A stretch of DNA of 40,079 bases from Bacteroidales bacterium (GCA_045640025.1 JAZUEG010000552.1:1-40079); one strand, 5' to 3'; positions 1 through 36,703 are shown, numbered from the stretch's first letter. The notes: generated by a model not told the origin, from the letters alone. Made by a program: numbers and translations.

Positions 1-3000
1 ATGCTGCGCGGTGTGCCGCCGTTGAATCTGATTCCGGATTTGGTGTAGCGGACCTCCTTCTTGTCGTGGTTGGCCTTCTTGCGGCCGTCCTTGCCGAAAC
101 GGCCCATCACATTCTTGAAGTACGGGATGTTCTTGTAAAGACGCTCGAAGTTGAGCGATCCGTTAAGTGTGAGGATTCCCGAATTGTTGATGATGTTGCC
201 GTGGTCTATGGTCATTACATCTGATGACATTCCCGATGCCACTTGCAATGGGTCGATACCGCGGTTCCATTCATAGTCGGCATTGTAGATTGCGTTAAGC
301 GATGTCCAGCCGAGGCCCGGAATCTTGTTGACAGGTGTCTGCCAGTTGAGCTTGATGTTCTGGGTGTAGCGTGTATTGTATCCCAGGTCGAAGTAGCGCA
401 TGAAGATGGTGTCGCGGTCGCGGGCCTTCTCGGTTGCGTAGTTGTCGATCTTGCCGTCGGGGTTTACACGGCTCTCGTTATTAGCTGAAAAATCGAGCTT
501 GAGATTCTGCGAGAGCTTGTAGCGGAGCTCGTAGCGGCGAGTCCAGTTGAAATCCTTCCTGTATGTGGGATCGAGGTAAGTATCGTTGGAATTCACGTTT
601 CGGTATTGTATCTGCGAATAGTTGCGGTCTATGTTTCCATTGAAGGCTATCATAGTTGGCAGCAGATAGAAATTGAAATCGCGGATAATGGCGAGATACT
701 TGTTTTTGAGGAAGCCGATCTTGCTGAACGGCTTGTAGTTCTTGGGATTGTAGGTGTAGTTGTATTCCAGAGTAGACTGCAATATCTTCTCGAGCTGGCT
801 CTGCACTGTGATGTCGTGCATGTAATATTCGCTGTAGGCCATACCCGCAGTAAAGTTGGATATGTGGTAGAATGGTTTCTGCTTGGCCTTGGGCTCATCG
901 AGCTTTATCTCCGACGGGTCTTTGTCGGGATTCTGGCGGATGGCTTTCTGGAGGCGCGCGTTCTGCTTGGCCTCGTCGCTGCGGCCTTCCATGTGCACAT
1001 TGGTGAGGTTGAGGCTCTTGCGGCGCTCGTATGTTATGGAGCGGTCGCGCACCTCGTCTTTCTCCTCCTTGGAGAGCAGTGGATCCTTCAATGTGGTATT
1101 GAGCTCGATATCGGGATCCAGCGGATTGTATTTGGGAAGCTCGTAGCTCTCGGAGTATCCGTAATAGAATGGCATTCGCACGTTGTAGTCGCTGTTGAAG
1201 AATTTGCCCAGCTGAACCAGTGTATTCACATCGTACTGATACACAGTTTCCTGATGGCGCTCCTGCACACGCTTCTCTATGCTGCCGAATCCCGGAGTGT
1301 GCATGTATCCTGTCATGGTGACAGTGGCGAGGTCGGCCAGCTGAAGCTCTGCCTTTCCGCGGGCAGCCCATCCGCCCTGCTCGTCAAAATCGGTGAGTCT
1401 CAGCTCATTAACCCAGATTTCGGCTGACTTGGGCATTCCATCGTCTTCCATCACATTGGACGACTGGGCCGGATTTCTTACACCAATCATTATGGTGCGT
1501 ATATTGCTCACATTGGGATTTCCCATTATAGTGATACGGCTGCCGTCGCCGTTCTCCATTGTAAACGGCATGGTGACAGCCACATTGTGACCAAGCTCGC
1601 GTGCGGCATTGTTGCGCTGCTGTTTTACGAGCTGAAGCTGCTCGAATATTATCTCCACATTATTCTGCAATGGCCATACAGCCAGACGGCCGTTGTCGTC
1701 GTCGGCATAGTAGCCCTCGGGAGTCACGGAGATGGGCATCTCGTATTCGTAATAGTTTTCCTTGTAGTCGGAGCCCAGGCGCACAAAGATGTGGAGGTCG
1801 TCGTCGTTGAGGATTTCGCCGGCCTTCTCCTCGGCGTGCACATACATCTTGAGCTTGCGGTACTGGCGGAGATCGAGCATGGCAGTCTTGTATGCTGCCA
1901 CGGCCTGTCCGTCGGGAAGGTTGGTGACATGGAGCGCCATTGCCTTCTCGTCCTGCTCCACTATCTGATTGGTCATGTAGTCGCGCTCGCGCTCTATGCC
2001 CGGAGGCAGCAGATAGTTTACAGGCTGTTTGCTTCCGTTCTCCTCCAGGCCCACGTTGGTGATATCGAGGATTCCCTGGTCGAACTGGGTATCGGTTACA
2101 AATTCTCCGGCCTCGGTCATGGTGGCGTTGTATTTTCGCCAGTCGCCGCGCACGAGGTTCATCTCGGCAAATCGGAGTATGATGTTTTTCTGCGCATTGG
2201 TAAGGTACATACGCAAGAACCTTATCGACTTGAAGTCGGAGATTGCACCCACTGTGCTATCAGGCTCGTAGATAGGCACTTTGAACTGATACCATTTTAC
2301 TACTTCCTGCTCGCCGTTTACGGTTTTCACATTGCTCTCCACGATATCGGTGATGTAGTTGGAACCTATGCGCATATCAGCTGGGCTCAGGTGAACCTTG
2401 TACTGATAGTACGATTCGGTCTCGGAGAGAGTGTTGTCGAGGTTGATATCCTCCACATCGGGATAGCGGTCCTTTATGGTGGAGTAGCTGGAGTTGCCGC
2501 CGAGGTCCGATGAGTTGCCCTCCGATCCGTTGTAATGCTTGTACCCCTCCTCTATCGAGAGGCGCTGCCCGTCGTAGTCGGATCCGCGAAAATAGTGGTA
2601 GTTGTCAGCTGAAGGGTCATTGTATGCCTGCTGATAAGCCTCCGAATCTGTGCCGTACATCCTGGCGATGCGGTCCAGATATTTCTGGTGGAAGATACGC
2701 TCCTCATCGTCGTCAAGACCGTCGAAACCCTTGTCCTGAGCCTCCTTGGCGCCGTTGGTGTTGTCGAAGGCGTTTACGAGGAATGTCTTGGTGGATACCA
2801 CACCCCAGGCCGTGGTGTCTATGTAGCTCTCGTCCATCGGATACGGGATACCATTCTCGAATGATTTTCTGGAATCCTTGAGCACATCCTCGCTCACATG
2901 TCCGAGATTGAAGTAGAGGTCGGCGCCCATGCCTTCCTGCTCGTAGATGAAGGGGTCGAGCATCCAGAATTCCAGATACTCGATGTTGGAAGTCTCGAAA

Positions 3001-5930: not shown

Positions 5931-5934
5931 GTGG

Positions 5935-6534
5935 CTACTTAACGTTTCTTAAAGCAAATTTTATGAGGTCCTCGGTGCTCATTCTCGGGTTGGATGCCAG
6001 AGCCTGGTCTATAGCCTTGTCGGCCTGTCCCTTCTGGTATCCGAGCATTATGAGAGCAGCCAGAGCCTCCTCGCGGTGGGTGCCTGTGGCCTGCACATTA
6101 GCTACGCCATTAGCTCCATCCATCACATCGGCCTTGGCTATCTTGTCCTTGAGCTCTATTACCACACGCTGGGCAGTCTTGGGGCCAATGCCCTTAACCT
6201 TGCCTATCAGCTTGGCGTTTTCCTGGAGGATAGCGGCCTGCAGCTCTGCCGGACTCATCGACGAGAGTATCACCCTGGCGGTATTGGGGCCAATGCCCGA
6301 TACATCTATGAGCATGCGGAATATCTCGCGCTCGCTCTTATCGGCAAACCCGTAGAGCTGCTGAGTGTCTTCCCTCACAACGTGGTGGACATATAATTTT
6401 GCTTTTTCCTGATTCTCGAGCTGAGAATAGGTGTTCAATGATATGTTGATGAGCCAGCCGATGCCGCCGCCATTTTCCACAACGGCGTACGACGGATTGA
6501 GCTCGGCCAAAATTCCTGATATATATTCGTACAT
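5935..6534 (-). CDS. ruvA: Holliday junction branch migration complex subunit RuvA
   Basis: 199 aa. It has the MYEYISG N-terminus, helix-hairpin-helix motifs (VSGIGPNTARVIL, KGIGPKTAQRVVIELKDK) and a C-terminal domain III (EEALAALIMLGYQK). Confidence 0.92.
   Translation of the reverse strand: MYEYISGILAELNPSYAVVENGGGIGWLINISLNTYSQLENQEKAKLYVHHVVREDTQQLYGFADKSEREIFRMLIDVSGIGPNTARVILSSMSPAELQAAILQENAKLIGKVKGIGPKTAQRVVIELKDKIAKADVMDGANGVANVQATGTHREEALAALIMLGYQKGQADKAIDQALASNPRMSTEDLIKFALRNVK
6105..6115 (-). repeat. Copy of AGCTAATGGCG, followed by a second AGCTAATG
   Basis: The plus strand reads CGCCATTAGCT, with a further CATTAGCT at 6096..6103. It lies inside the ruvA linker in sense (GANGVANV). 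Confidence 0.9.
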
Positions 6535-9430: not shown

Positions 9431-10165
9431 ATGCTTAAAAAATTTGCACTATTAGCTGCCACAGTAACAATGCTGCTGACAGCATGCGAAAACCAGAGAC
9501 CGCCGCTCTCGCAGACCCAATGCGCACAGGCGATATTCGAGATACACCGCGCCGACGCCATAATGACCCTGAAAGGCCTGAGCGACAGCAATCTAAACAA
9601 CGATTCGCTGTCGTACTACAACTACGTATTCGCCAAACTGGGAATCAGCCGCAAGGATTTTCTGGATGCAATACGCTGGTACATCAACCACCCCGAAAAA
9701 TACAAGAGCGTATACCGGGAGGCCATCAAGATAGCCAGCCAATACGAGCAGAGCGAGCGCGCAAGATACGAGATAAACACCGAGCGCGAGCCCAACGACA
9801 TCTGGGACATGAAAAAGAACTGGAACCTTCCGCTCGACGGCGAAAAAAATCCGATCTCGTTCAATATCAAGGCCAACGGACCGGGCCTCTACACACTGGG
9901 CGCCGACATCACGTATTACAAGGACGACCAGACCATAGAGCCGGCCATGACCCTGATAGTGGAATACGAGGACGGCACCATAACCCGCAACTCGGTAATC
10001 GACATACTGAAAGACGGCAAGGAACGCCACATAGAGGTAATGCTGGAGGCCGATTCCAGCAAAAGAATCAGCTGCCTGCGCGGCTGGGTGCTCGACCACT
10101 CGAGCGAGACCGAGAGCAAGCACATCGACTGCTACAACATTACCCTGAAGCGAACCAAAGAATAA
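9431..10165 (+). CDS. Lipoprotein, DUF4296-like
   Basis: 244 aa with a lipobox (LLTAC). The N-terminal helix segment QCAQAIFEIHRADAIM resembles DUF4296 lipoproteins. No catalytic motifs were recognised. Confidence 0.6.
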   Translation: MLKKFALLAATVTMLLTACENQRPPLSQTQCAQAIFEIHRADAIMTLKGLSDSNLNNDSLSYYNYVFAKLGISRKDFLDAIRWYINHPEKYKSVYREAIKIASQYEQSERARYEINTEREPNDIWDMKKNWNLPLDGEKNPISFNIKANGPGLYTLGADITYYKDDQTIEPAMTLIVEYEDGTITRNSVIDILKDGKERHIEVMLEADSSKRISCLRGWVLDHSSETESKHIDCYNITLKRTKE

Positions 10166-10168
10166 TAA

Positions 10169-10891
10169 ATGGAGAAAACCGAAGCCATAGTACTGCACGT
10201 CTCCAAATTCGGCGACAACAAGCTGATAGTGAACACATTCACCAAGCAGAATGGCAGAATGTCGTTTTCGGTGGTGATACCATCATCGCGCAACAAGGCC
10301 TCTGCCCTGCCCTACTGTCAGCCGCTATTCCAAAACGAGATAGAGTATACTGGAGCTAATGGCGCGGGAATACGCAAGGCCAGCAAGATAACGCCCAGCC
10401 GCACGTATTCCACCATACCATTCAGCATAAGCAAAACCGCCGTGGTAATGTTCTTAGCTGAGATGCTGTCGAGAGTACTCTCCTACTCCGAGGAAAACGA
10501 GATAATGTACGAATACATAGCCACCAGCCTAAAGATACTGGACCAGCCGGAATACAGCGGAAAAAACTTTCACCTGAAATTCCTGATGCAGCTGGCCAAG
10601 TACATGGGATTCTATCCCGGCAACAGGTATTCGGAAAACCGGCCGAGTTTCGATCTCGCCCGGTCGATGTTTGTGGAAGACAACATTGGAGTACCGCATC
10701 TGATAAGGCCGCCTTACGGCAAGATTTTCAGCCAGATGCTTGACACCGACATTATCAGCTGCGAAAACATCGACATCAGCGGCATTGAAAGAAGCTATCT
10801 GCTGGAAAAAATAATAGAGTATTACGCCTACCGCTTCGACAACCTGAGCAACATACGAAGCCTGGACGTACTGCAAAGCATTTTTCACTAA
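10169..10891 (+). CDS. recO: DNA repair protein RecO
   Basis: 240 aa. It has the N-terminal OB-fold pattern MEKTEAIVLHVSKFGDNKLIVNTFTKQNGRMSF, typical Bacteroidota RecO length and the C-terminal ...RSLDVLQSIF. It begins 4 nt after the upstream gene. Confidence 0.8.
   Translation: MEKTEAIVLHVSKFGDNKLIVNTFTKQNGRMSFSVVIPSSRNKASALPYCQPLFQNEIEYTGANGAGIRKASKITPSRTYSTIPFSISKTAVVMFLAEMLSRVLSYSEENEIMYEYIATSLKILDQPEYSGKNFHLKFLMQLAKYMGFYPGNRYSENRPSFDLARSMFVEDNIGVPHLIRPPYGKIFSQMLDTDIISCENIDISGIERSYLLEKIIEYYAYRFDNLSNIRSLDVLQSIFH
10354..10364 (+). repeat. Copy of AGCTAATGGCG
   Basis: It lies inside recO in sense (GANGA). Confidence 0.9.
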
Positions 10892-13821: not shown

Positions 13822-14214
13822 ATGATAGATCACTTGATTTTAGAGCAGTCGGTAGACACCCCGGGTGTGGATATGGATCCCAACACAGGTGTTTGCGAAT
13901 TTACAGGTAAGTCGTTCCCAGCGGACGTCACTGCATTCTATCAGCCAGTAATTGACTGGATTGATGAATACAGCAAGAATCCTTGTGCAAAAACAGTTGT
14001 AAATCTCAAGTTGGACTATTTCAACACAGCATCGTCGAAGATTCTTCTCGAAATGTTCAACATGTGGGAAACTTTGTACAAAAACGGCAATGATGTTACT
14101 ATCAACTGGCATTACCCAGATGACGATGAGGATATGGAGCAGACCGGTCAGGAATACTCCGAGCTGCTGATGTTGCCTTTCAACAAGATTGGCTACACTG
14201 TACAGTTCTTCTAA
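13822..14214 (+). CDS. DUF1987 domain protein, SiaC-like (partner-switching phosphoprotein)
   Basis: 130 aa. The pattern ...TPGVDMDPNTGVCEFTGKSFPADVTAFYQPVIDWIDEY...NLKLDYFNTASSKILLEMF...VTINWHYPDDDEDMEQTGQEY... matches what I recall of DUF1987/SiaC proteins: an acidic WxYxxDDED segment and a YFNT/S phospho-acceptor loop. Confidence 0.75.
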   Translation: MIDHLILEQSVDTPGVDMDPNTGVCEFTGKSFPADVTAFYQPVIDWIDEYSKNPCAKTVVNLKLDYFNTASSKILLEMFNMWETLYKNGNDVTINWHYPDDDEDMEQTGQEYSELLMLPFNKIGYTVQFF

Positions 14215-14275
14215 TATCCCACAAAACCAAAGATATTTTTTTTGTTTTTCCTTGTACGTTTGATTTTTGAGTAGT

Positions 14276-14305
14276 AAGACCGGCCTAAGTGCCGGTCTTT
14301 TTTTT
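14276..14305 (+). terminator. Rho-independent terminator after the SiaC-like gene
   Basis: The stem is AAGACCGGC (14276..14284) paired with GCCGGTCTT (14291..14299), with a 6-nt loop followed by a T-run. Confidence 0.75.
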
Positions 14306-14325
14306 ATTTTGCACAAAAAAAAATA

Positions 14326-14356
14326 TTTGGTTTTATGCCAATTATAAATATATTTG
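14326..14356 (+). promoter_or_regulatory. Putative promoter of the first PP2C gene (-33 TTTG / -7 TATATTTG)
   Basis: TTTG at 14326..14329, then a 19-nt spacer, then TATATTTG at 14349..14356, with 25 nt before ATG 14382. Confidence 0.5.
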
Positions 14357-14381
14357 CAGTTTAGCTAATAACACTTGAAAT

Positions 14382-16613
14382 ATGAGAAAACATATAGACA
14401 TAAGGAAATTATTACTAAAAGGCGGAATATTGATGCTGTCTGCGTCATTATTCATACCAGCGTGCAAACCTCCCGATGATGAGTTTGCCACTCAGGTAGC
14501 CCAGAGCAAGCATGTTAATTTCAGTTCCGACGATTTACACAGCCGTAATACCAATCTCGACTCTCTATATTTTGCCTACAACGAGGCCATGCAGCAGGCA
14601 AGGCAGTACAACGATGAAACGGCATTAGCTAAAATATACCACAAGTATTACGACAGCTACCTGCAGCGCGGAATGCTTCAGGAAGCCTACAACTACGCCG
14701 ACAGTATCGACAAACTTGGACTGCGAACCGAAAACATCTACATTCAGGCCCGCGGATATCTCGATCTCTGTATAATACTGGCCAGGATGAACAACTACTC
14801 CATAGCCAGCAAAAACTATTTTGAGGCTTTGGGAATATATGCGAGACTGGGCGACACTGCCAACATGGCACGGACATTCCTGGCCATGGGAAATGCAAGC
14901 TACAATGCAATGGTTTACGATTCGGCTGCGGCATATCTCGACAGGGCAACTGGTCTCACAAAGATGATGAATCTCGACATGGAGTTTGCCAGGACTTTAG
15001 CCTACAAGGGTGAGATGGAACTGCAGAAATTCACCAGCGACCTCGCAAATCCCGACATCAGCCTAATAAGGAAAAGCAAGGAATTGCTCGAAGCTGCCAA
15101 AAACCTAAACCAGAAAGCTCCAAACCACAATACCGAAGAGATTGTAAATCTTGCGCTTACCGAAACAAATTATTTTCTGGCGCAAGGCATTCCAAACCCG
15201 ATGGCAAGGCGCGACCTCCAGAACAATATACTCGAAAACATCGACAACGCTCTGGAATACTCAAATTTCAGCAATCAGCCCGAAAAAGCCAAACTGCTCC
15301 GCCTGATTCAGGTAAACACATTGGTAGACCTGAACAGAATAGCCGAAGCCAAGGAGATTGTGGAATTAATCCACCAGCAATCGATTGAGGATTCGGCCTA
15401 CATCCATCAGGAGGCATATTACACCACCAAGGCAGTAATAGCAGAAGCCGAAGGCAAATATCAGGAGGCAATGGTTTACGGCAAGAAGGCAAGCCTCTAC
15501 AAGAGCAGTCAGAACATCAACGACGACTCGTACACAAAAAGCCTTCAGCTGGCCCGAAACCAGAGCCAGGGCGAAAAAATGCGCGCCAAGATGGAGATAC
15601 GCGGTCAGCAACAAGCCAAACGCACAATTACGATGATTGGCGTGATAGTATTGCTTTCGATAACGATAATCACCATCCTCATCTACCGGAACTTGCGCAG
15701 AAGCAAAATTCTCAACGACAAGATAATGGCGCAAAACGATGAGATAAAAATCATAAACAACGAGGTAACCAAGCAAAACAAGGAAATAACCGAAGGCATC
15801 AACTACGCAAGCCTCATACAGACGGCTATTCTGCCAAGCGAGGAAAAAATGCAGAACATCTTCGGCGACCACCTTGTAATCTACAAGGCCAAGGAGATTG
15901 TATCAGGCGATTACTACTGGAGCTACGAGACAGCACGACAGAAACTCATTGCCGTTTGCGACTGTACAGGCCACGGAGTGCCGGGCGCAATGCTGAGTAT
16001 GCTTGGTATCAACATACTGGAGCACGCCACTAGGAGAATTTCTTTCCAGCCCAAGACCGCATCTGAGATTCTGGACGATGCGCGCACCGAGTTCAAGAAA
16101 ATTCTCAACCAGACACACTACTCAGCCAAGGGAGCCAAAGACAGCATCGACATGGCGATAATAGTATACAATAAGCCTACACGCACTCTTGACTACGCCG
16201 GAGCACAGCGTCCGCTATACATAATACGCAACGGCGAGCTGATACGGTACAAAGCCGACCCGATGCCGATTGGAGTATACCCGATAGAGAAAGAGCATTT
16301 CACAAACCACATGGTGAAACTGGAAGAAGACGACTACATCTACATGTTCTCCGACGGAATACAGGATCAGTTTGGATGGATGGCCGAAAGACCTGTTCCA
16401 TCGTCGTTCTCATCCAGACGACTAAACGAAATGCTTCTCCAAAACTATCAGAAGCCATTCAGCGAGCAGAAGGAGATAATACTCCGCGAAATAGAGAATT
16501 GGAAAAAAGGCAAAAACAAAACCCAGAACGATTGCGCTCAGACCGACGACAACGTGATAATAGGCCTGTCGATGCGCAACATCCTATCCACCGATCCCAA
16601 ATACAAAGCTTAG
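14382..16613 (+). CDS. Membrane sensor phosphatase: lipoprotein-type signal, TPR-like extracytoplasmic domain, TM helix, coiled coil, PP2C/SpoIIE phosphatase
   Basis: 743 aa. It has the lipobox LFIPAC and about 390 aa of helical TPR-like repeats. The TM helix is ITMIGVIVLLSITIITILIY. The PP2C motifs are IVSGDYYW, DCTGHGVPGAMLSM, DSIDMAII, FSDGIQDQFG and TDDNVIIGL. Confidence 0.85.
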   Translation: MRKHIDIRKLLLKGGILMLSASLFIPACKPPDDEFATQVAQSKHVNFSSDDLHSRNTNLDSLYFAYNEAMQQARQYNDETALAKIYHKYYDSYLQRGMLQEAYNYADSIDKLGLRTENIYIQARGYLDLCIILARMNNYSIASKNYFEALGIYARLGDTANMARTFLAMGNASYNAMVYDSAAAYLDRATGLTKMMNLDMEFARTLAYKGEMELQKFTSDLANPDISLIRKSKELLEAAKNLNQKAPNHNTEEIVNLALTETNYFLAQGIPNPMARRDLQNNILENIDNALEYSNFSNQPEKAKLLRLIQVNTLVDLNRIAEAKEIVELIHQQSIEDSAYIHQEAYYTTKAVIAEAEGKYQEAMVYGKKASLYKSSQNINDDSYTKSLQLARNQSQGEKMRAKMEIRGQQQAKRTITMIGVIVLLSITIITILIYRNLRRSKILNDKIMAQNDEIKIINNEVTKQNKEITEGINYASLIQTAILPSEEKMQNIFGDHLVIYKAKEIVSGDYYWSYETARQKLIAVCDCTGHGVPGAMLSMLGINILEHATRRISFQPKTASEILDDARTEFKKILNQTHYSAKGAKDSIDMAIIVYNKPTRTLDYAGAQRPLYIIRNGELIRYKADPMPIGVYPIEKEHFTNHMVKLEEDDYIYMFSDGIQDQFGWMAERPVPSSFSSRRLNEMLLQNYQKPFSEQKEIILREIENWKKGKNKTQNDCAQTDDNVIIGLSMRNILSTDPKYKA

Positions 16614-16623
16614 ACACATATCC

Positions 16624-16658
16624 AAGAGACGCATTGCAGGATGCGTCTCTTTTTTTTT
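16624..16658 (+). terminator. Rho-independent terminator between the two PP2C genes
   Basis: An 11-bp perfect stem, AAGAGACGCAT (16624..16634) paired with ATGCGTCTCTT (16641..16651), has loop tgcagg and a T-run to 16658. It lies 11 nt after the TAG stop at 16611..16613. Confidence 0.85.
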
Positions 16659-16667
16659 GGCTCAAAA

Positions 16668-16700
16668 TTTGGTGTGATTTTTATATATAAATTACCTTTG
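16668..16700 (+). promoter_or_regulatory. Putative promoter of the second PP2C gene (-33 TTTG / -7 TACCTTTG)
   Basis: TTTG at 16668..16671, then a 21-nt spacer, then TACCTTTG at 16693..16700, with 21 nt before ATG 16722. Confidence 0.45.
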
Positions 16701-16721
16701 CCTGTATTAAACAAAAAATCA

Positions 16722-19037
16722 ATGCATCGAAAAAAGACTTATTTTATATATGCAGCAATAGCCATAGCGTTATCATCATCGTGTCAGCATCTGGAACTCT
16801 CAGACTCCACTGAAGACCACGGTGTAGATACCATAAACCTTGCCCGTGTGGATTGGGTGGCGCACAACAAATACGACCTCGATATGATGATAATGGCGGA
16901 AGGACAGAAACTGTTGCACTCTCATAACAAAAACGACGTGGTAACCGAAGCCCAGTGTTTCAACAATTTGTTTTGGGTAAACTACATTAACGGTAGAACC
17001 ATCGACGCATACCGAAACGGCCACGCACTCGTGCTCATGGCCGACTCGCTGAAAAACATCTACATGCTCGGACAGGCTTATCACAATCTCGGCGTGGTAT
17101 CGGGAGCCATGAACAATCCATCGATAGCAGGCCGAAATTTCAACGAATCGCGGTTAGCCTTATCCGAGGTCGACAACCAGCTGGGAATAGCCTCCATGAT
17201 GCTCGATAAGGCCAAAACGCACTATGAATCGGGCATTTTCGATTCTGCCAAAGTAGCACTTAATGGAGCTAATACAATACTGAACAAGCTCAACAACCGC
17301 GAAATGCTTACCAGATACTTTGCATATTCTGGCGAGATGGAGCTATACCGCTACATCAACAACAAAGTAAATCCCGATTACAAATCTCTGGAACTAAGCA
17401 TCCAGCTTCTGGAAAATGCACAAAACATTCAGGAAGGCCAAACAGAATACTTAGATTACTTAATCAACGCATGTCTCGGGTTGGCCAACTACCATCTCGC
17501 CATTAGCGAACCAAATGAAAAAAAACGTGCCAATCTCCTGGACACTTCGCTCGCCTACATCAACAAGGCAATCCCTATAGTGAAAATAAGCAGAAACCAG
17601 TCTCAGCTGAGGGAGCTGACACTGAGCAAGATGGATGCACTGCTCCGGCTAAACAGGAACAACGAGGCAATGGATTTTCTAAGCGAGATGGAGCAACTGC
17701 AAGAGCATGGCGATACAAGCTACTTGCTTCTGGCCACCCAATACGACCTCCGCGAGATAATAGCACGCCATAATGGAAAGTATCAAGAAGCGTATGAATA
17801 TCAGACTCTTGCCCAAAAGTATCTGGAGACATTGAACAACGAAAGAGAGGCTTTCAAGATATCGCTGATAATGGCGCGCACGCTGAATACCGATGAGCGA
17901 AACAGAGCCAAGGCAAACCTGATGGAGATAAAGGCCCAGACCAGAATACGTAACCTCATAATAATGATAATCTTTTTGGTGATGGTTTCAGTTTTGGTAA
18001 TGGTGATAGTAATCAGGCGAAACTACCATAAGGCGAAGAAACTTAACAGCACCATCGTGATGCAGAACGAGGAACTCCTGATAAACAACCAGATGCTCGA
18101 GAAATTCTCGCAAACCATCAACTCTCAGAACAAGGACCTGAAATCCAGCATCAACTACGCCAGCCTTATCCAGAAGGCGATACTGCCCAACAGGGAGAAG
18201 ATGGAATCGGTTTTCGGAAAGTTCGCAATGTATTACTCGCCAAGGGACGTGGTATCAGGCGATTTTGTCTGGGTACTCGAGACACCGAGATACAAACTCC
18301 TTGCCGTGGGCGACTGCACAGGTCACGGAGTGCCAGGCGCGATGCTCAGCATGCTCGGCACATCGATACTCACGCAGGAAACAAGGCATCAGGAAGAGCG
18401 ACACTACACTGCCGGCGAGATTCTCGACCGCGTGAAGAACACTTTCAAGAAGCTGTTGAACCAGACCAGCTACGAAAGCAACCAACCTCACGACAGCATC
18501 GACCTCGCCCTCGTAATGTTCGACAAACAAAGCACCGAGATGCAGTTTGCAGGCGCGCACCGTCCTTGTCTCATAGTTAGGGACAAAGAGATAATAACAA
18601 TCCGCGAGGACATAATGCCTATTGGAGTTTTCATAAATGAGAAGGAGCATTTCACCAACAACAGAATGGAGATGCAGGAAAACGATATCATCTATCTCTT
18701 CTCCGACGGCATTCAGGATCAGTTTGGATGGAAAGAGGGCAAGAACCGCTCATTGGCATTCTCATCAAAGAGACTGAAGGAGACAATCCTGCAAATCCAC
18801 GAGCTCCCCTTCCAGAAACAGGAAGAAGCATTGGCAAACATTCTCGCCGATTGGCGGAAGCCCAAAGTGGAGGATTTCGAGGTTCAGCCCCAGACCGACG
18901 ACAATGTTCTCGTGGCAATCAGGGTAGGAAACGTACTCAACCAAAAACGCACCGAAAATAACGGCCTACAGGACGAAGTCCTGCCCCCCCCCGATAACTT
19001 TACCATCCCAATAGCAAACATCCCGAAACAAGCCTAA
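16722..19037 (+). CDS. Paralogous membrane sensor phosphatase (TPR-like sensor, TM, coiled coil, PP2C/SpoIIE)
   Basis: The ORF opens at 16641, but that ATG lies inside the terminator stem. I prefer ATG 16722 (MHRKKTYFIYAAIAIALSSSC, lipobox). The TM helix is LIIMIIFLVMVSVLVMVIVI. The PP2C motifs are VVSGDFVW, DCTGHGVPGAMLSM, DSIDLALV, FSDGIQDQFG and TDDNVLVAI. By eye the catalytic domain is about 60% identical to the upstream paralog, while the sensor domains are much more diverged. Confidence 0.85.
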   Translation: MHRKKTYFIYAAIAIALSSSCQHLELSDSTEDHGVDTINLARVDWVAHNKYDLDMMIMAEGQKLLHSHNKNDVVTEAQCFNNLFWVNYINGRTIDAYRNGHALVLMADSLKNIYMLGQAYHNLGVVSGAMNNPSIAGRNFNESRLALSEVDNQLGIASMMLDKAKTHYESGIFDSAKVALNGANTILNKLNNREMLTRYFAYSGEMELYRYINNKVNPDYKSLELSIQLLENAQNIQEGQTEYLDYLINACLGLANYHLAISEPNEKKRANLLDTSLAYINKAIPIVKISRNQSQLRELTLSKMDALLRLNRNNEAMDFLSEMEQLQEHGDTSYLLLATQYDLREIIARHNGKYQEAYEYQTLAQKYLETLNNEREAFKISLIMARTLNTDERNRAKANLMEIKAQTRIRNLIIMIIFLVMVSVLVMVIVIRRNYHKAKKLNSTIVMQNEELLINNQMLEKFSQTINSQNKDLKSSINYASLIQKAILPNREKMESVFGKFAMYYSPRDVVSGDFVWVLETPRYKLLAVGDCTGHGVPGAMLSMLGTSILTQETRHQEERHYTAGEILDRVKNTFKKLLNQTSYESNQPHDSIDLALVMFDKQSTEMQFAGAHRPCLIVRDKEIITIREDIMPIGVFINEKEHFTNNRMEMQENDIIYLFSDGIQDQFGWKEGKNRSLAFSSKRLKETILQIHELPFQKQEEALANILADWRKPKVEDFEVQPQTDDNVLVAIRVGNVLNQKRTENNGLQDEVLPPPDNFTIPIANIPKQA

Positions 19038-21151: not shown

Positions 21152-23005
21152 TTAACGTCCGAGATGAATCAAAAGTGTATTGATATCAGATGGACTCACA
21201 CCAGGAATTCTTGACGCTTGACCGATATTAGCTGGACGGATCCTCGTAAGTTTCTGTCGGCACTCGGTAGATAGCGACTTCAACGATTCGAAATCCATAT
21301 TTTCAGGAATCTTGACATAATCAAGACGGGACAGCTTATCAGCTGTCTGCTCTTCCCTATCAATATAGCCCTGATACTTAAGTTTTATTTCAGCTGATTC
21401 AATTTCATGATGGCTGAACTTTTTCAAGAACGGAAAAACATCCTTGAGTTCCTCGAGAGCCACTTCTGTTCTCAGAACAACAGCACTCAACTTATTGCCC
21501 TGAACCATCGGCTTACCGCCCTTCGATTCAAGATAACCGTTGATTTTTTCACATGAAACAGAAGTCGACTTGCAAAACTCAAGAATCCTTTCTACGTTAT
21601 CAGCCTTCGCTTTGTAAGTCATGTAACGTTCTTCATCAGCCAAACCGATATCAAAACCTCGCTTGGTTAAGCGCTCATCCGCATTATCCTGACGTAAAAG
21701 AATTCTGTATTCCGATCGTGAAGTAAACATTCGGTAAGGTTCATCAACACCTTTGGTTACGAGGTCATCTATAAGAACGCCAATGTAGGCATCCTTCCTC
21801 GAAAGCACCACCTCTTCCCTACCCTGAAAACTCAGCGCAGCATTTATTCCAGCTAATAGCCCTTGACACGCAGCCTCCTCATATCCTGTGGTTCCATTCA
21901 CCTGACCGGCAAAATAACAACCCTTGACAACCTTCGATTCCAAGGTATGAAGCAACTGAGTAGGATCGAAATAATCATATTCAATGGCATATCCAGGACG
22001 GAAAATCTTGCAGTTTTCAAGTCCGGGAATTTTGCGGATGGCGGAATACTGAACCTCAAACGGAAGCGAAGAAGAGAACCCGTTGAGATAATATTCGCAA
22101 GTATCAGTACCCTCCGGCTCCAGAAAAACAGGATGAGAATTCTTATCAGCGAATGTCACAATCTTGGTCTCCACCGACGGACAATACCTCGGCCCAGTTG
22201 ATTTTATAGTTCCATTGAAAAGCGGACTGCGGTCAAAACCCTTCCTCAATTCTTCATGAACCTCTGGATTAGTATAAGAAATATAGCATTCTCTCTGCGG
22301 AAGTTTCTGAATCTTGTGCGCCATATAGGAGAAAGAATCTTCAGCAGAATCGCCAGCTTGTGGTGTCATCGCCGAAAAATCTATAGTTCTTCCATCAATT
22401 CGTGCAGGAGTTCCGGTCTTCATTCTGCCGGTTTTTATCCCAGCTAATAGCAGGGTTTCTGTTAAGCCATGCGCCGGAATCTCACCGATTCGCCCTCCTT
22501 TATATTGATTTTCGCCTACATGCATAAGGCCGTTGAGGAAAGTTCCGGCCGTAATGACAACTTTATTGCATTTGAATTGCACACCAAACACAGTCTCAAT
22601 GCCCACTACCCTACCCTCTTCCACACAAATCTTGCTAACAGTATCCTGCCAGAAATATAGATTAGGAATCTTTTCGAGCTGATCACGCCAGAAAATAGAG
22701 AATTTCACGCGGTCACACTGAGCCCTTGGAGACCACATAGCAGGACCTTTGGAACGGTTCAACATCCTGAACTGAATAGAACTCATGTCGGTAACTATTC
22801 CCGTCAAACCGCCCAAAGCATCGATTTCGCGAACAATCTGGCCTTTCGCAATTCCGCCAATAGCAGGATTGCAAGACATTTGCCCAAACTTCGCCATGTC
22901 CATAGTTATCAGCAAAGTTCTAACGCCAAGTCTTGCCGAAGCTGCCGCAGCCTCGCATCCGGCATGCCCCGCTCCTATCACAATTACATCATACTCTTCT
23001 ATCAT
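21152..23005 (-). CDS. mnmG: tRNA uridine-5-carboxymethylaminomethyl(34) synthesis enzyme MnmG (GidA)
   Basis: 617 aa. It has the FAD motif YDVIVIGAGHAGCEAA, plus MSCNPAIGG, GPRYCPS, AGQVNGTTGYEEAA and the C-terminal IPGVSPSDI. Confidence 0.95.
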   Translation of the reverse strand: MIEEYDVIVIGAGHAGCEAAAASARLGVRTLLITMDMAKFGQMSCNPAIGGIAKGQIVREIDALGGLTGIVTDMSSIQFRMLNRSKGPAMWSPRAQCDRVKFSIFWRDQLEKIPNLYFWQDTVSKICVEEGRVVGIETVFGVQFKCNKVVITAGTFLNGLMHVGENQYKGGRIGEIPAHGLTETLLLAGIKTGRMKTGTPARIDGRTIDFSAMTPQAGDSAEDSFSYMAHKIQKLPQRECYISYTNPEVHEELRKGFDRSPLFNGTIKSTGPRYCPSVETKIVTFADKNSHPVFLEPEGTDTCEYYLNGFSSSLPFEVQYSAIRKIPGLENCKIFRPGYAIEYDYFDPTQLLHTLESKVVKGCYFAGQVNGTTGYEEAACQGLLAGINAALSFQGREEVVLSRKDAYIGVLIDDLVTKGVDEPYRMFTSRSEYRILLRQDNADERLTKRGFDIGLADEERYMTYKAKADNVERILEFCKSTSVSCEKINGYLESKGGKPMVQGNKLSAVVLRTEVALEELKDVFPFLKKFSHHEIESAEIKLKYQGYIDREEQTADKLSRLDYVKIPENMDFESLKSLSTECRQKLTRIRPANIGQASRIPGVSPSDINTLLIHLGR

Positions 23006-23436: not shown

Positions 23437-23832
23437 TTACAATTTAAAAGTCATTTTTATCAATGTTCCACCTTCCAAGAATTCTATCCCGTCCGATAAA
23501 CTCTTGATCAAATATATACCTCGGCCACTAAATTTTAAGAGATTTTCAGGCAAAGTTGGGTCAGGAAGATTTGTAAAATCAAAGCCAAGGCCCTCGTCCT
23601 TGACGCAAATCTCCAGCAATCCATTCCCTACCGTTGCATCCAAAAATATGAATTTGGATGAATCGAGACGGTTACCATGCTTTACCGCATTCACCACAGC
23701 CTCGGTTGTTGCGATAAGAATGTTGCCATAAATCTCCTCGGAGATCTGATTCTCCGAACTGATGGAATCGATAAAATTCTCGGCCAAGATTATATTATCG
23801 ATACTCGTCTGAAAAGATAAAGACTTTTTCAT
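23437..23832 (-). CDS. RsbW/SpoIIAB/SiaB-like serine-threonine protein kinase (HATPase_c, anti-sigma-factor type)
   Basis: About 131 aa from ATG 23832; the track start at 23841 is a GTG. It has the N-box EAVVNAVKHGN, the G1 box KDEGLGFD and the G2 box GRGIYLI. The size and architecture are typical of partner-switching kinases. Confidence 0.75.
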   Translation of the reverse strand: MKKSLSFQTSIDNIILAENFIDSISSENQISEEIYGNILIATTEAVVNAVKHGNRLDSSKFIFLDATVGNGLLEICVKDEGLGFDFTNLPDPTLPENLLKFSGRGIYLIKSLSDGIEFLEGGTLIKMTFKL

Positions 23833-23840
23833 GTGAAACA

Positions 23841-26800
23841 CTAATCTATATTTTGAATGTAATCGTTATACTTGTTTTGATAAAAAAGGTTGAGGTTTAC
23901 GGGCGCAGAATGTATAAATTCCTTAACACCAAAATCCTTCAACTTCAGGTTTAGATTCTGAGAATTGTTGTTCTGAAAATCAAAACCTTGTTTACTTTCA
24001 CGTTTATCGTCGTAATCTTGTTCTTTTTCGGCTTTTTCTAAATCTAAAAGCTTATTGAAGACAAGATTTTGACGCTCTACCAAGCGCTTAGTAATGTTCT
24101 TATTTACAATATCACGCTTGTTCTCATCCATCATTTGCTGGATTTGATTCATCAATTGTTGTTCCTGTTGAGAAACACCTTTGCCATTTTGCATCTCTTG
24201 GAGTTGCTGCATCATCATTTCCTGTTGACGCAAAGCCTCGGCAAGTTGTTGAGAAGACATCTTATCGCCATTCTGTAATTGCTGAAGCATACGTTGAAGT
24301 TGTTGTTTAAGCATCTGTTGCTGAGTCTTCATCTGCTGAGTGCGTTGCTGTCGGCGTTGATTTTCCTTTTTGTTACGGGTTTCAACCGATTCCTCTGAAT
24401 CTTCGCCCTCCTCTCCTTCTTGCTGTTGCTTCTGCATATTGTCTGCAATCTGATCGAAAATCAAGCTCAAATCATTGAAATACGTCAACAAAGTCTGCAT
24501 ATAAGTGGCCACAGAAGAACGTGAACCACTCTCAACTCCCTTCAAAACCTGATTGAATTGAGTATGAATATTATCTATTTTATTATAAACTTCATGACCT
24601 AACTCAGGAGAACGTTTGGCCAAAGCATAAATTGAATCCTGAACCAATGCAAAATCCTTAATTATTGAATTCTGATCACGAAGCAATTCAGTTTGAATAT
24701 AGACAGTTTGCGTATTCAGATTCAAGTTATTAATCAACTTTTCCTGATTAAACGAAATAGCAATCAAATTATCAAGAATTTGACGGATATCATTTAAGTT
24801 TTCTTGACGCTTTTTCTGCTGATTTTTCTTTTTAAGACCGTTCATTTCCTTGGACAAATCCTCCATCTCCTCGGAAGTTTGCTCCATTTGTTGAGAAATA
24901 TTATCACGTCTTTGCTTCTCATTTGTATTTTTTGAGCCATTTTTATTAGATCCTGAATCAGATTTTTGATTGTTTTTGTCGGAATCAGAAGCATTTTGTT
25001 CATTATTATTATTCACTCCAGTATCAGATTTATCATCTTTATTACCGGAATTATTACGATTTTTTTCAGCTGATACATCACTTTTTGAATCAGAATCGTT
25101 GGGATCTGACTCTTTGTTTGAATCCAAATCATTAGATTCGGACCCATTTTTCGAGTCATTATTTCCTGTTTTTTTATCAGCTGATACATTTTCATTGTTA
25201 TCCTCGTCAGCTTTCTGTGAATTTTTATCTGAATTAGACTTATCAAGTGCATCAAAATCAGACTCCAGAGGCTTCAATCCAAGGTCTTTTTCCAAAGATT
25301 CAGTCTCGTTTTTCTGGAAATTAAGCTCGTTTTTAACTTGATCAAATTGCTTTTCCAAGTCTTGAAGATCCAATTTATTATCGCCAAGTTGCTCGTTTTG
25401 CTTCAATAAATCATTGTAACTATCCTTTAATTTATCAAAATCTTTGTTGAAATCCTGCATTTTATCAGATAATGATTCTTCTCTGGAAGACTTATTGAAC
25501 TTCATTTCCTTAGACAAATCCTTATATTTATCAGACATCTGCTTCAAATCGTCACTAAGATTATGTAGTTTGTTGTCGATATTATACATTTTCATCAACT
25601 CGCTGTTGCGGTCAAGCTGTTCTGAAATCTGATTGAAATCAAATTTCAGGTCCTGAATATTATCACGAAGGTTCTTTTCAGTAAGAGAATTCTTCATTTG
25701 CTCAATTTTATCAAGCAATTCCTTAATGTCATCCGACATCAAACTCTCCCACATTTCCTGCAACTGATGCTGTTTATCGAGCAATTCTTGAGATAATTTG
25801 TTATTTAATTGATTCTCGAAAGCATTTTTTGACATATTATCCTGTGAAAGATCATTCATAAGTTCAGATAATTTCTCCTGCTTTTGCATCAAATTATCAA
25901 TTTTGAGTTGTTTTTCCCAATCAGAAATTTGATTATTAGAAGAAATGTTTTTCTGAAAATCATTCAAATCGTTATTTAATTCACGTAAAAGACGTTGGGC
26001 TTCATCAATTTTATCAAAAATTGAAGAGTTCAGATTGTCAACTCGTTCTTGTTTTTCCTCATTTGTAATAGTAGTATAAATAGAAAGTGGGGTTTTAGCT
26101 GACTTAAAACCAGAAATTGCATCGTTATCTTTAACTTCAAAATAATAGGAAACGGACTTAGAAAGATTGCTGAAATCGAAATAATAATAAAAATCCTGGG
26201 AAATTGCTTTACGCAACTCTATATCAGCTGAATGAACATCCTTGGGATTGTTGGAATCAAAATATTTGAAACTCAAGCTATGAAAACCATAATCATCTGA
26301 TATGTGACCGGAGAAGAAAACGCCATTAGCTGAACTTGAATCAACAGCTGAAACTGCCACAATCTGAGGCGAATAGTCAGGCAAAAGATTCACGTGAAAC
26401 AAATTCGAATTCACAGAAAGACCTCCCTCTCCCACTGCTGAATAATAATAATCGAAAGGTTTCAAAGCTTTTGTATGAACCTGAAGATTTTCTACTGCAT
26501 GGTTTACTTCTTGAGCAACGCTATCGCAATAAAAATTGAAAATTGTTGCATGTGAAACATTAAAGGACCAAGCCAAAGTAGAACCAAATGGTGCTGTAAA
26601 GTCACTGAAATTATCAGTAACGATAACATCCAAACCAGTATAGGCAGGAGGATAAATTGTAAGTGTAGAATTAATTATAGTCGGTTTATGAACAACGGAT
26701 ATTTTATGTTTCTCAGATGTAAAATCGAGATAATTGAAAGAAAACTCAATATCCGAAGTAACATTACGCAATGTATAAGAAAAACAATCAGCTGAATCGG

Positions 26801-34716: not shown

Positions 34717-35157
34717 TTACTTTACAGGCATCTTCTCGATACGGCGCTGATGACGACCGCCCTCAAACTCGGTGCCGAGGAATGCCTCAAGAATCTTGAT
34801 AGCCTCGTCCTGCGAGATAAAGCGGGCAGGCATGCTGAGCACATTAGCATTGTTGTGCGAGCGGCCCAGACGGCTGATCTCCTCGTTCCAGCAGAGCGCG
34901 CAGCGGATACCCTGATGCTTGTTGGCAGTCATGGAAATACCATTGCCGCTTCCGCAGATTGTGATACCGAAAGTATCGGGATTGCTCTCCACAGCCTCGG
35001 CGAGAGGATGTGCAAAATCTGCATAATCACAAGACTCGGTGCTGTTGCAGCCAAAGTCCTCAACCTCGTAACCCTTCTTCTGAAGGTAGTCCTTCACGAA
35101 AAGCTTCAATTCGTAGCCAGCGTGATCCGAGGCCATGAACAATTTGTTGATTTTCAT
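34717..35157 (-). CDS. rpiB: Ribose-5-phosphate isomerase B
   Basis: 146 aa with ASDHAGYELK, ICGSGNGISMTANK and GGRHQRRI. Confidence 0.92.
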   Translation of the reverse strand: MKINKLFMASDHAGYELKLFVKDYLQKKGYEVEDFGCNSTESCDYADFAHPLAEAVESNPDTFGITICGSGNGISMTANKHQGIRCALCWNEEISRLGRSHNNANVLSMPARFISQDEAIKILEAFLGTEFEGGRHQRRIEKMPVK

Positions 35158-35198
35158 AATGTTAACTAATTATATTGGTTAAAAAAACATTGTGTATC

Positions 35199-35710
35199 AG
35201 CTAATGTGGACAACTTAAAAAAGCCGTCAAAACATAAGAGACTGAAAATAAAGAGATTAGCAAATTTTACATTTAGTATCATAAGCTAATCATTTTGTTA
35301 TAAATCAGCTAATTACAAGACTTATAAACATGGTGTGTTAATAACACTGTTAATAACTGTTGATAACGCCGCCACCTATGTGGAAAACCGTGACAAAGGT
35401 AAAAATTATCAACAGAAACCAATTAATTTCCACAAAAAATTAACAGTTTGTCCACCGCAAAAACACATCTTCACCATCAGCTGCTTATCCACATCAGTAT
35501 TTCAGCTAATGGCCAGCTAATGTGAATAACTCTTGTAACCGCCAATTATTCAGAAAAATAATCGGCCATGCCAATGTGGATAAAAACACTGCAAATGTGG
35601 AAAACTCAAAAGCCAAAATTAAAGAAAAAAAGTTATCCACAATATCCACACGCAATAAAAAACAATAAAAGAATTAAAAAATAAAAAAATAAATAATATT
35701 AATTTGAAAG
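35199..35710. other. Candidate chromosomal replication origin (oriC): DnaA-box cluster plus AT-rich unwinding tract
   Basis: Perfect TTATCCACA / TGTGGATAA boxes lie at 35485..35493, 35575..35583 and 35633..35641. One-mismatch boxes lie at 35205..35213 (TGTGGACAA), 35358..35366 (TGTTGATAA), 35379..35387 and 35596..35604 (TGTGGAAAA), 35521..35529 (TGTGAATAA) and 35642..35650 (ATATCCACA). Weaker boxes lie at 35426..35434 and 35448..35456. A roughly 90% A+T tract at 35651..35710 abuts the last two boxes. The whole lies in a 559-bp gene-free spacer between divergent rpiB and nadA. Confidence 0.65.
35504..35513 (+). repeat. Copy of AGCTAATGGC (10-mer), intergenic, inside the putative oriC
   Basis: The sequence is AGCTAATGGCC, followed immediately by AGCTAATGTGAATAA (35515..35529), so the word is fused to a DnaA box. 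Confidence 0.9.
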
Positions 35711-35716
35711 AAAACG

Positions 35717-36703
35717 ATGGAAGGAGCTTTGAAACCAACCCTCAAGAACGGACATATCGACATGCCGGTTCCAGAGGGCACAGACCTTAGGGCAGAGATA
35801 GCGAGAATGAAAAAAGAGAAAAACGCTGTAATACTCGCCCACTACTATACTACAGCCGAAGTGCAGGAAGTGGCCGACTACACCGGCGACAGCCTGGGCC
35901 TAAGTCAGCAGGCAGCTAAAACAGATGCCGACATAATCCTCTTTGCCGGAGTGCACTTTATGGCCGAGACAGCCAAAGTACTTTCGCCGAAAAAGAAAGT
36001 GCTGATCCCCGACCTGGCTACAAGCTGCTCGCTGGCCGATTCAGTTACCGAAATGGCCCTGGCCGAGTGCAAGAAAAAATATCCCGACCACACTGTAATC
36101 TCATACGTAAACACAACCGCCGAGGTTAAGGCCCTCACCGACATTGTGGTAACATCCAGCAACGCCGTAAAGATAGTGAGCCAGCTGCCCGCCGACGAGA
36201 AAATAATCTTCGGCCCCGACAAGAACCTCGGCAACTACGTGAAGAAGGTGACCGGCCGCGACGACATGATAATCTGGGACGGCGGATGCCACGTTCACGA
36301 CCATTTCGACGCAGAGGCGCTCCGCAAGCTGAAAGCCGAGCATCCGGCTGCGAAGGTACTCGCCCACCCCGAGTGCAACGAGTCTATTCTCAGCCAGGCC
36401 GACGTGATAGGTGCCACATCAGCTCTCCTGAAAGCCACTTGCGAATTGCCTGATACAGAGTTCATTGTAGCCACCGAGCCCGGCATATTCTACGAGATGA
36501 AGAAACGCAATCCGCAGAAAACATACATTCCCGTGCCCAACGAGAACGGCCACCCATACAATGTATGCCAAAACATGAAGCGCAACAATCTCGTGAAGAT
36601 CTACAACACGCTAAAATACGAATTTCCAGAAGTGGACGTGCCGGAGGCCCTCAGCAACAAGGCCATTAGCTGCATAACACGCATGATGGAAATGAGTAAA
36701 TAA
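35717..36703 (+). CDS. nadA: Quinolinate synthase NadA
   Basis: 328 aa with ILAHYYT, AGVHFMAETAKVL, SYVNTTAEVKA, HPEC and ATEPGI. Confidence 0.93.
   Translation: MEGALKPTLKNGHIDMPVPEGTDLRAEIARMKKEKNAVILAHYYTTAEVQEVADYTGDSLGLSQQAAKTDADIILFAGVHFMAETAKVLSPKKKVLIPDLATSCSLADSVTEMALAECKKKYPDHTVISYVNTTAEVKALTDIVVTSSNAVKIVSQLPADEKIIFGPDKNLGNYVKKVTGRDDMIIWDGGCHVHDHFDAEALRKLKAEHPAAKVLAHPECNESILSQADVIGATSALLKATCELPDTEFIVATEPGIFYEMKKRNPQKTYIPVPNENGHPYNVCQNMKRNNLVKIYNTLKYEFPEVDVPEALSNKAISCITRMMEMSK

Follow-up and report, generated by a model that had tools for sequence, protein, structure and literature searches.

Chromosomal origins of replication (oriC) frequently lie beside dnaA or dnaN, but this adjacency does not define them. 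In the phylum Bacteroidota it is often missing: in Prevotella intermedia OMA14 the origin is found at the skew transition and not near dnaA, which is a common state in the phylum (PMC4755523). One Bacteroidota origin with functional proof is that of Cytophaga hutchinsonii, where plasmid replication was shown and agreed with the DoriC prediction (Xu et al. 2012, as cited in PMC3531139). The locus described here lies in a stretch of 40,079 nucleotides from a Bacteroidales bacterium (GCA_045640025.1, JAZUEG010000552.1:1-40079; hereafter the window), in which the 559-bp spacer between rpiB and nadA, positions 35158-35716, is very probably the DnaA-dependent oriC of an uncultured rumen Bacteroidales. 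An earlier reading of the window, the first-pass annotation, had proposed this spacer as an oriC candidate, and it is now supported by conservation of its DnaA boxes, by a module that recurs across the phylum, by coincidence with published origins, and by a highly unstable tract next to the boxes.

A published comparison is the basal unwinding system (BUS), which was described for Bacillus subtilis and is predicted in 85% of bacterial origins (PMC8287927). It consists of tandem DnaA boxes, the upstream one nearer to consensus, and an unwinding side that lies 10-13 bp beyond the better box, with a short GC cluster in between (PMC8287927; PMC6669920); 10-13 bp is the modal spacer and 16 bp the maximum (PMC8287927). 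The BUS at incC in the B. subtilis oriC (Richardson 2016, 2019; Pelliciari 2021, 2023; PMC8287927, PMC6669920) and the spacer described here share orientation-dependent tandem boxes beside the unwinding side, a distal box nearer to consensus, a spacer of about 12-13 bp, and extra upstream boxes in either orientation. B. subtilis has consensus 3'-GAT-5' DnaA-trios and a dnaA-dnaN location, whereas here there are neither recognisable trios nor a dnaA neighbour. Closer in descent are the DoriC/BUS origins of Chitinophaga pinensis DSM 2588 (ORI93020100), Niastella koreensis GR20-10 (ORI95030423) and Prevotella ruminicola 23 (ORI93030288), to which the module of the spacer is homologous. All three combine tandem boxes, oriented as TTATCCACA, with a short GC cluster and an AT-rich side, and are likewise unlinked to dnaA. 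They differ in having clear trinucleotide repeats (bottom strand GAT TAT CAT...) where AATAAAAAACAATAAAAG is found here, in a second box that starts 8 nt after the first (9 nt here), and in a left neighbour that encodes a SurA-like peptidyl-prolyl isomerase instead of RpiB. The P. intermedia OMA14 oriC, also from Bacteroidales, is similar in size (about 0.5 kb), has multiple DnaA boxes and is far from dnaA. It was placed at the GC-skew transition by whole-chromosome skew and Ori-Finder (PMC4755523), whereas the present candidate was placed from the window and its relatives. In Escherichia coli, oriC is also unlinked to dnaA and lies between divergently transcribed housekeeping genes (the gidA-mioC spacer), with a T-rich strand 5' of a TGTGGATAA box as here, and mnmG/gidA is also near in the window, 12 kb to the left of the spacer (21152-23005, minus strand; a classic origin-proximal gene in other phyla). 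The 13-mer repeats, IHF and Fis sites and GATC/SeqA control of E. coli oriC were not identified in the spacer.

As to dnaA itself, no window open reading frame (ORF) that was scanned matched the Pfam families of DnaA or DnaN. A tblastn search had no match in the window or in 88 related loci, and found no dnaA within 10 kb of nadA; its probe was a sequence of E. coli DnaA domains III-IV, which matched DnaA chains in the PDB at 8e-100 to 1.5e-55. The earlier statement that the window has neither gene is therefore borne out by Pfam and, for dnaA, by tblastn. Its description of the locus as a dnaA-unlinked origin is supported as well, but not the surprise that it implied, because this state is the published norm for the phylum (PMC4755523) and was to be expected here. 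As is the rule for Bacteroidota, dnaA presumably has its place in another part of the chromosome. Genomes from the phylum are still routinely rotated to the start of dnaA and drawn as if oriC were there (e.g. PMC5771137).

The DnaA box array

The elements of the spacer and the two genes that bound it are the following, with mismatches counted against the perfect box TTATCCACA.

35158-35716, no strand: candidate oriC, the whole rpiB-nadA spacer, 559 bp, 29.7% GC
34717-35157, minus: rpiB (ribose-5-phosphate isomerase B), left flank, Pfam LacAB_rpiB (E=6.8e-59), reads away from the spacer
35191-35199 and 35205-35213, minus: rpiB-proximal box pair, TGATACACA (2 mismatches) and TTGTCCACA (1 mismatch), facing the 33-bp AT-rich segment 35158-35190
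35336-35387, minus: box group at 35336 and 35348 (2 mismatches each), 35358 (TTATCAACA) and 35379 (TTTTCCACA), conserved in relatives
35406-35456, plus: boxes at 35406 (TTATCAACA, 1 mismatch), 35426 and 35448 (2 mismatches each)
35485-35493, plus: perfect DnaA box TTATCCACA
35521-35529, minus: DnaA box TTATTCACA (1 mismatch)
35575-35604, minus: perfect box 35575-35583 and box 35596-35604 (TTTTCCACA), 21 bp apart
35633-35650, plus: tandem boxes TTATCCACA and ATATCCACA, head to tail with no gap, the perfect box distal to the AT tract
35651-35653, plus: CGC, a short GC cluster between the tandem boxes and the AT tract
35654-35710, plus: candidate DNA-unwinding element (DUE), 57 nt, A-rich on the top strand, reaching almost to the nadA ATG
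35717-36703, plus: nadA (quinolinate synthase), right flank, Pfam NadA (E=2.6e-119), the kept neighbour of the spacer across Bacteroidota

Three boxes are perfect (35485 on the plus, 35575 on the minus and 35633 on the plus strand), seven have one mismatch (35205, 35358, 35379, 35406, 35521, 35596 and 35642) and seven more have two, which gives 3, 10 and 17 boxes at zero, at most one and at most two mismatches. The three perfect boxes are those reported before; all six one-mismatch positions listed then are correct, although the count missed the one at 35406, and the "further two-mismatch boxes" mentioned can now be put at seven. In 5000 runs of a first-order Markov model built from the spacer's own composition, the mean counts were 0.005, 0.19 and 2.5 for the same three thresholds, and the observed counts were reached in none. 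With at most one mismatch, 10 of the window's 21 boxes fall in the spacer, whose length is 1.4% of the whole, and a total of 21 was not attained in any of 100 shuffles of the whole window. No other 559-bp segment of the 40 kb comes near the spacer in box count; the first-pass annotation had noticed only isolated near-matches outside it. The ten boxes with at most one mismatch lie within 446 bp, a cluster well inside the rule of Mackiewicz for oriC, which as quoted in PMC7561715 asks for at least three boxes at a mean spacing below 100 bp.

The array also has some internal order. The minus-strand pairs 35358/35379 and 35575/35596 both have 21 bp between their members, which therefore lie on the same helical face; the pairs are part of a 31-nt direct repeat (D1), with its second copy at 35575-35605.

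The unwinding module and its counterparts in DoriC

The tandem boxes at 35633-35650 point at the AT tract, as BUS boxes do, and are in the commonest BUS layout of PMC8287927: a head-to-tail pair with the distal box nearer to consensus, oriented toward the unwinding side. Since CGC follows the second box, the perfect box ends 12 bp before the AT tract (the 9 bp of the second box plus CGC), which is within the modal BUS spacing. The segment 35651-35710 is 88% A+T (53 of 60 positions), close to the roughly 90% of the first-pass annotation, which had called it a plausible DUE. In a nearest-neighbour scan, 35654-35703 is the weakest 50-bp duplex in the 40 kb (-47.0 kcal/mol; mean -67.6, standard deviation 5.75), and it starts only 3 bp from the tandem boxes, so that box cluster and candidate DUE are adjacent as in an oriC. 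On the rpiB side, where the AT tract is 33 bp long, 35141-35190 ranks 11th for duplex instability, and the boxes 35191 and 35205, facing 35158-35190, make up a secondary unwinding candidate.

From this layout we infer a conventional course of initiation. DnaA would occupy the three consensus boxes and at least seven near-consensus boxes over about 450 bp. The tandem pair, with its perfect distal and one-mismatch proximal box, would direct a DnaA oligomer past CGC onto 35654-35703, where the strands would open and the helicase would be loaded. Replication would be bidirectional: leftward it would run with 12 of the 13 genes between 19.2 and 35.2 kb, which are on the minus strand as had been claimed, and rightward it would run through nadA. 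The tract 35654-35710 would then serve both as DUE and as the DNA that contains the nadA promoter, which the opened A/T tract would carry.

The same element can be found in origins that had already been catalogued. The supplementary BUS table of PMC8287927 rests on DoriC origins, which were chosen from Z-curve asymmetry and DnaA boxes. For C. pinensis the string is given as 3'-CAAAAGTGT ATAAGTGT CGG GATTATCATCAC-5' (PMC8287927), and the complement of its core has an exact match at 9899-9921 of locus L055, from a Chitinophaga genome, 80 bp upstream of nadA. In a very similar way, the complement of the N. koreensis core (full string 3'-AATAGGTGA TTAAGTGT CGG CATTATCATTAT-5'; PMC8287927) is matched exactly at 9927-9943 of locus L030, from N. 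populi, 58 bp upstream of nadA. What DoriC calls oriC in Chitinophaga and Niastella is thus the nadA-proximal module.

Conservation in close relatives

An exact look-up of the window's NadA gave no entry; its best matches are metagenomic proteins with at most 93% identity, and the closest species-representative genome is a metagenome-assembled genome (MAG) of a Bacteroidales from yak omasum (78%). Six close relatives were compared, with NadA identities of 93% (L082), 92% (L081), 84% (L083), 80% (L084), 72% (L086) and 68% (L087). In all of them except L084 the gene order dut-...-rpiB (minus), spacer, nadA (plus)-MORN is kept and the spacer contains a box cluster; it is 558-560 bp long in L081, L082 and L083, and 545-594 bp in L087 and L086.

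The boxes of L081, L082 and L083 have kept their positions. In a four-way alignment of these three loci with the window (NadA 84-93% identical), 70% of the box columns are invariant compared with 28% of the rest (Fisher p=9e-14), and the sequence between the boxes has diverged while the boxes were held. Relatives have kept box 35205; within 35406-35456 the blocks TTATCAACA and TT(T/A)TCCACAA are invariant or almost so, and the tandem pair 35633-35650 is invariant in L081-L083 except for a C to A change at box position 6. In the AT tract the blocks CAATAAAAA, following the tandem pair, and AAAAATAAAAAAA are invariant in the four genomes. Judging by this alignment, the box array is under purifying selection in the syntenic spacers of close relatives. 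Lack of conservation there was among the grounds that the first-pass annotation had named for giving up the origin reading, and the opposite is seen.

L084 is a special case. Here the block from a polysaccharide-synthase gene to rpiB is inverted, leaving nadA with a 95-bp spacer that has no boxes, and the array is now in a 1.1-kb spacer between dut and rpiB, with 12 boxes of which three are perfect. At the dut end of this spacer are the tandem boxes, a short spacer (AAC) and an AT tract. The array was kept when it was parted from nadA and is therefore a self-contained unit, not simply an operator of nadA.

The inversion itself covers 4591-9905 of L084 (5.3 kb) and at one end comes as close as 95 bp to the start of nadA. 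The origin was moved to the opposite side together with the genes from rpiB to the polysaccharide synthase, and so the orientation of these genes relative to the origin is unchanged. The spacer grew to 1.1 kb through AT-rich repetitive DNA. It may also be mentioned that in four of the close relatives dnaG, for primase, lies about 5 kb to the right of nadA and is read toward the origin (L081 14819-16816, L082 14949-16970, L083 14972-17002, L087 14917-16944).

Linkage to nadA across Bacteroidota

Species-representative genomes were scanned by NadA alignment, which gave 80 Bacteroidota loci, none of them from Cytophagales. In many of these the densest box cluster is directly upstream of nadA. The 750 bp upstream of nadA have 0.53-0.84 boxes with at most one mismatch per 250 bp, and the remaining DNA about 0.08, an enrichment of about 7-10-fold just upstream of the gene across the 80 loci; per kb, the density is 3.88 upstream of nadA and 0.57 in those other spacers of the loci that are 300 bp or longer. 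In most loci from Bacteroidia, Sphingobacteriia and Chitinophagia, the 170 nt before the nadA start contain the same module, made up of a box, a degenerate second box, 2-4 G/C, a repeat with 3-nt periodicity and then AT-rich DNA. Examples are "cccc TAA TAG TAA TAG", "gcc TAT CAT CAT CAT" and "gac TAA TAA ACA ATA AGA", and the GC clusters gccc, cccc, gcc and gac of other loci are equivalent to CGC in the window. A strict BUS pattern, in which a box with no more than two mismatches is followed within 16 nt by three or more NTA units, occurs before nadA in 20 of 86 loci, against about 0.7 expected from the rate elsewhere in the same DNA (0.0085 matches per equivalent stretch of 370 nt). The module was not found in the Saprospiraceae, Lewinellaceae and Rhodothermales loci.

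To the left of the spacer the neighbour varies by class. In 48 distant loci it is rpiB in 12 (as in the close relatives), a gene for an FAD-binding aspartate-oxidase-like protein, presumably nadB, in 12 (Sphingobacteriaceae), and a gene for a SurA-like peptidyl-prolyl isomerase in 16 (Chitinophagaceae). The aspartate-oxidase-like neighbour is that of L004, L007, L008, L010, L012, L017, L018, L020, L024, L027, L045 and L051; if it is nadB, the origin of Sphingobacteriaceae lies between two divergent NAD-biosynthesis genes.

Full-text literature searches turned up no paper describing a link between oriC and nadA or quinolinate synthase. A tentative overall picture, which we consider possible but rather less than likely as a whole, is that oriC has been tied to nadA since the ancestor of Bacteroidia, Sphingobacteriia and Chitinophagia, with a left neighbour that varies and an unwinding module that always points into the nadA promoter, and that in the present lineage the DnaA-trios decayed while the octamer CAGCTAAT, described below, became concentrated in the origin. 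The nadA linkage and the octamer are possibly undescribed. The origin itself is ordinary, and the understanding of how origins work is unchanged by it. In practical terms, nadA together with the box/BUS module upstream could serve as an oriC landmark in much of Bacteroidota, and the origin coordinate, assigned with confidence in an uncultured Bacteroidales lineage of the rumen, can be used in coverage-based growth-rate estimates (peak-to-trough ratio), in orienting or rotating MAG assemblies, and in oriC-based vectors.

Points against the origin and other explanations

Two groups of observations weigh against reading the spacer as oriC. The first concerns the DnaA-trios. In the supplementary table of PMC8287927 modules are written 3'-AATAGGTGT...GAT-5', the complement of TTATCCACA; by this strand convention trios belong on the complementary strand, as three or more NAN in a row (consensus 3'-GAT-5') no further than 16 nt from the boxes. 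Canonical trios were not found in these 16 nt of the complementary strand beside the tandem boxes 35633-35650. The strand reads 3'-GCG TTATTTTTTGTTATTTTC-5' after the boxes and is T-rich, which is why trios are missing, and there are no three in-phase A's. Trios are present in L086 (GAT AAT AAT GAT), in L002 and L003, and in 20 Chitinophagia loci. Comparison with these suggests that in the subclade of the window the trios decayed to an A-tract and were replaced by AATAAAAAACAATAAAAG. The module of the window is therefore BUS-like by homology and not a strict BUS member. One other segment, 35546-35583, does fit the published rule, with a perfect minus-strand box, 13 nt of GC-rich DNA and then AAT AAA AAG as trios. 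It was dropped in favour of the invariant nadA-proximal module, as it is not conserved in L081-L083.

The second group concerns strand asymmetry, which is the weakest part of the origin case. GC skew is negative over 6-40 kb, on both sides of the spacer and with no local switch, the right side being only 4.4 kb long; the skew within the window is uninformative and was set aside as evidence for an origin. In the two closest relatives the cumulative skew is still falling at +8.7 kb. Gene orientation, strongly leftward on the left side in this lineage, is mixed to the right of nadA in close relatives, and in distant loci only 40% of the ORFs on the left flank point away from the cluster. Some asymmetry of the expected kind is nevertheless seen in relatives. 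In four close relatives the left/right skews are -0.016/+0.013, 0.001/0.002, -0.081/+0.033 and -0.009/+0.050, with the right at least equal to the left and the values small. In distant loci, GC skew at third codon positions (GC3) shows a side effect of +0.040 ± 0.005 with the polarity of an origin (1059 ORFs, treated as independent, with gene strand controlled), where the standard error is too small because many of the ORFs are orthologous across related genomes. In 25 of 56 loci the cumulative skew reaches its local minimum no more than 1.5 kb from the start of nadA, compared with about 9 if minima were spread evenly over 12 bins. In L084 the minimum falls at the relocated origin, which was not counted as independent evidence, because inversion of a block flips its skew by construction.

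These points bear on two other explanations. It is improbable that the spacer binds DnaA without being an origin, either as a titration or recycling site like datA or DARS or as a DnaA-controlled divergent promoter of rpiB and nadA, with the real oriC elsewhere. Such a locus would account for the missing GC-skew switch in the window and its two nearest relatives; the spacer must in any case hold both promoters, and the phylum-wide link to nadA could in principle reflect regulation. The E. coli datA and DARS loci are likewise DnaA-box clusters outside dnaA, but they comprise 3-5 boxes, lack an unwinding module and do not fire. Neither a small titration cluster nor a promoter would need as much as 17 boxes, a tandem-box and GC-cluster module, and a duplex that is the weakest of the 40 kb. 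Clear DnaA-trio repeats stand at the homologous position in relatives, the module is the same as the DoriC origins of two Chitinophagaceae species that were picked by whole-genome asymmetry, and in L084 the array was retained after its separation from nadA.

There is still less reason to believe that the spacer is a relic or secondary origin, descended from the ancestral Bacteroidota oriC and still bound by DnaA, with initiation moved elsewhere. The apparent decay of the trios to an A-tract in this subclade and the flat or negative local skew on both sides would fit a relic. However, in four genomes whose intervening sequence has diverged, the boxes are invariant together with the tandem pair and the opening 9 nt of the AT tract, which is not expected of a decaying relic, and no second box cluster is present within -35/+4 kb of the spacer, or in the 10 kb on each side of nadA in close relatives with the ancestral order. 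Chance matches in AT-rich intergenic DNA can be dismissed: motif and spacer are both rich in A+T (70% in the spacer), but the composition-matched simulations never reach the observed counts, and other long spacers of related genomes have far fewer boxes than the DNA upstream of nadA. A functional DnaA-dependent oriC thus remains our strongly preferred reading of the spacer.

An over-represented octamer

The octamer CAGCTAAT occurs 20 times in the window where 1.5 copies are expected, a 13-fold excess (the maximum in 100 shuffles was 5). CAGCTGAT occurs 24 times; it has the palindromic core ATCAGCTGAT, and an extended form, CAGCTAATGGCG, is also seen. The octamer is about 18-fold denser in the spacer than in the rest of the window, with copies as follows.

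35198, 35306, 35503 and 35514 (35198-35521), plus: copies of CAGCTAAT in the spacer, two of which abut DnaA boxes

Relative to genes the octamer can run in either orientation, in most cases with GCT (Ala) in frame. Comparison with orthologues in L081 and L082 shows that copies arose through synonymous and amino-acid changes alike, so it looks like a word at the DNA level, of the uptake, HIP or methylation type. Its position in the origin beside DnaA boxes is, by analogy, reminiscent of GATC in the E. coli oriC or of an uptake-type sequence. A KOPS-like polar motif was also considered and rejected, because strand use to the left of the origin is balanced (8 minus and 6 plus). The motif is lineage-specific: CAGCTAAT was not found in the L081 and L083 origins, and L082 over-uses CAGCTGAA instead (19 times). 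The tetramer AGCT varies as well, from 0 sites in L001 (14 kb) and 3 in L084 (21 kb) to 5.3/kb in the window, and its scarcity in L001 and L084 suggests avoidance of AluI-type restriction.

Flanking genes and other features of the window

The spacer has no ORF of at least 80 amino acids. Rfam covariance models run over the window gave no family at gathering score, including the NAD+ riboswitch (nadA motif), and the only match for 35000-35900 was a chance microRNA (E=0.73); a riboswitch or other non-coding RNA in the spacer was therefore dropped as a candidate. No tRNA is present in the 40 kb. The gene calls rpiB, nadA and MORN (to the right of nadA) of the first-pass annotation all have Pfam backing. 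Its claim that the spacer is the only long non-coding stretch was not confirmed. Between a gene for an MqnC-like radical-SAM protein and recO, the 570 bp at 9600-10169 have only overlapping ORFs without a significant Pfam or NCBIfam match, and no DnaA boxes; they could be either a small gene particular to this lineage or another long spacer. In the case of 2.9-5.2 kb, a region of 2.3 kb that looked free of ORFs, this was an artefact of the ORF lister, and the region is inside the minus-strand sprA gene.

The sprA gene (3-5948, minus strand) is an ORF of >1982 amino acids that runs off the left end of the window and encodes the SprA translocon of type IX secretion (Pfam E=1.8e-190). Directly upstream is ruvA (5935-6534, minus strand). 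The presence of SprA beside RuvA, and of DUF4292 and DUF4294 proteins in the window, all fits Bacteroidota.

It is worth noting that G+C content is uneven among these conserved chromosomal genes, with about 52% over sprA (1-9 kb), 33-35% over the DUF4175, M23, DUF4292 and TPR genes (23-32 kb), while nadA and the MORN gene have 45-53%; the contrast between left and right recurs in relatives. On the plus strand, 13822-19037 contains a gene for a SiaC-family phosphoprotein followed by two large genes for SpoIIE-type phosphatases, and near to them, at 23437-23841 on the minus strand, is a gene for a HATPase_c_2 anti-sigma-like kinase. Together these genes look like a partner-switching signalling set.

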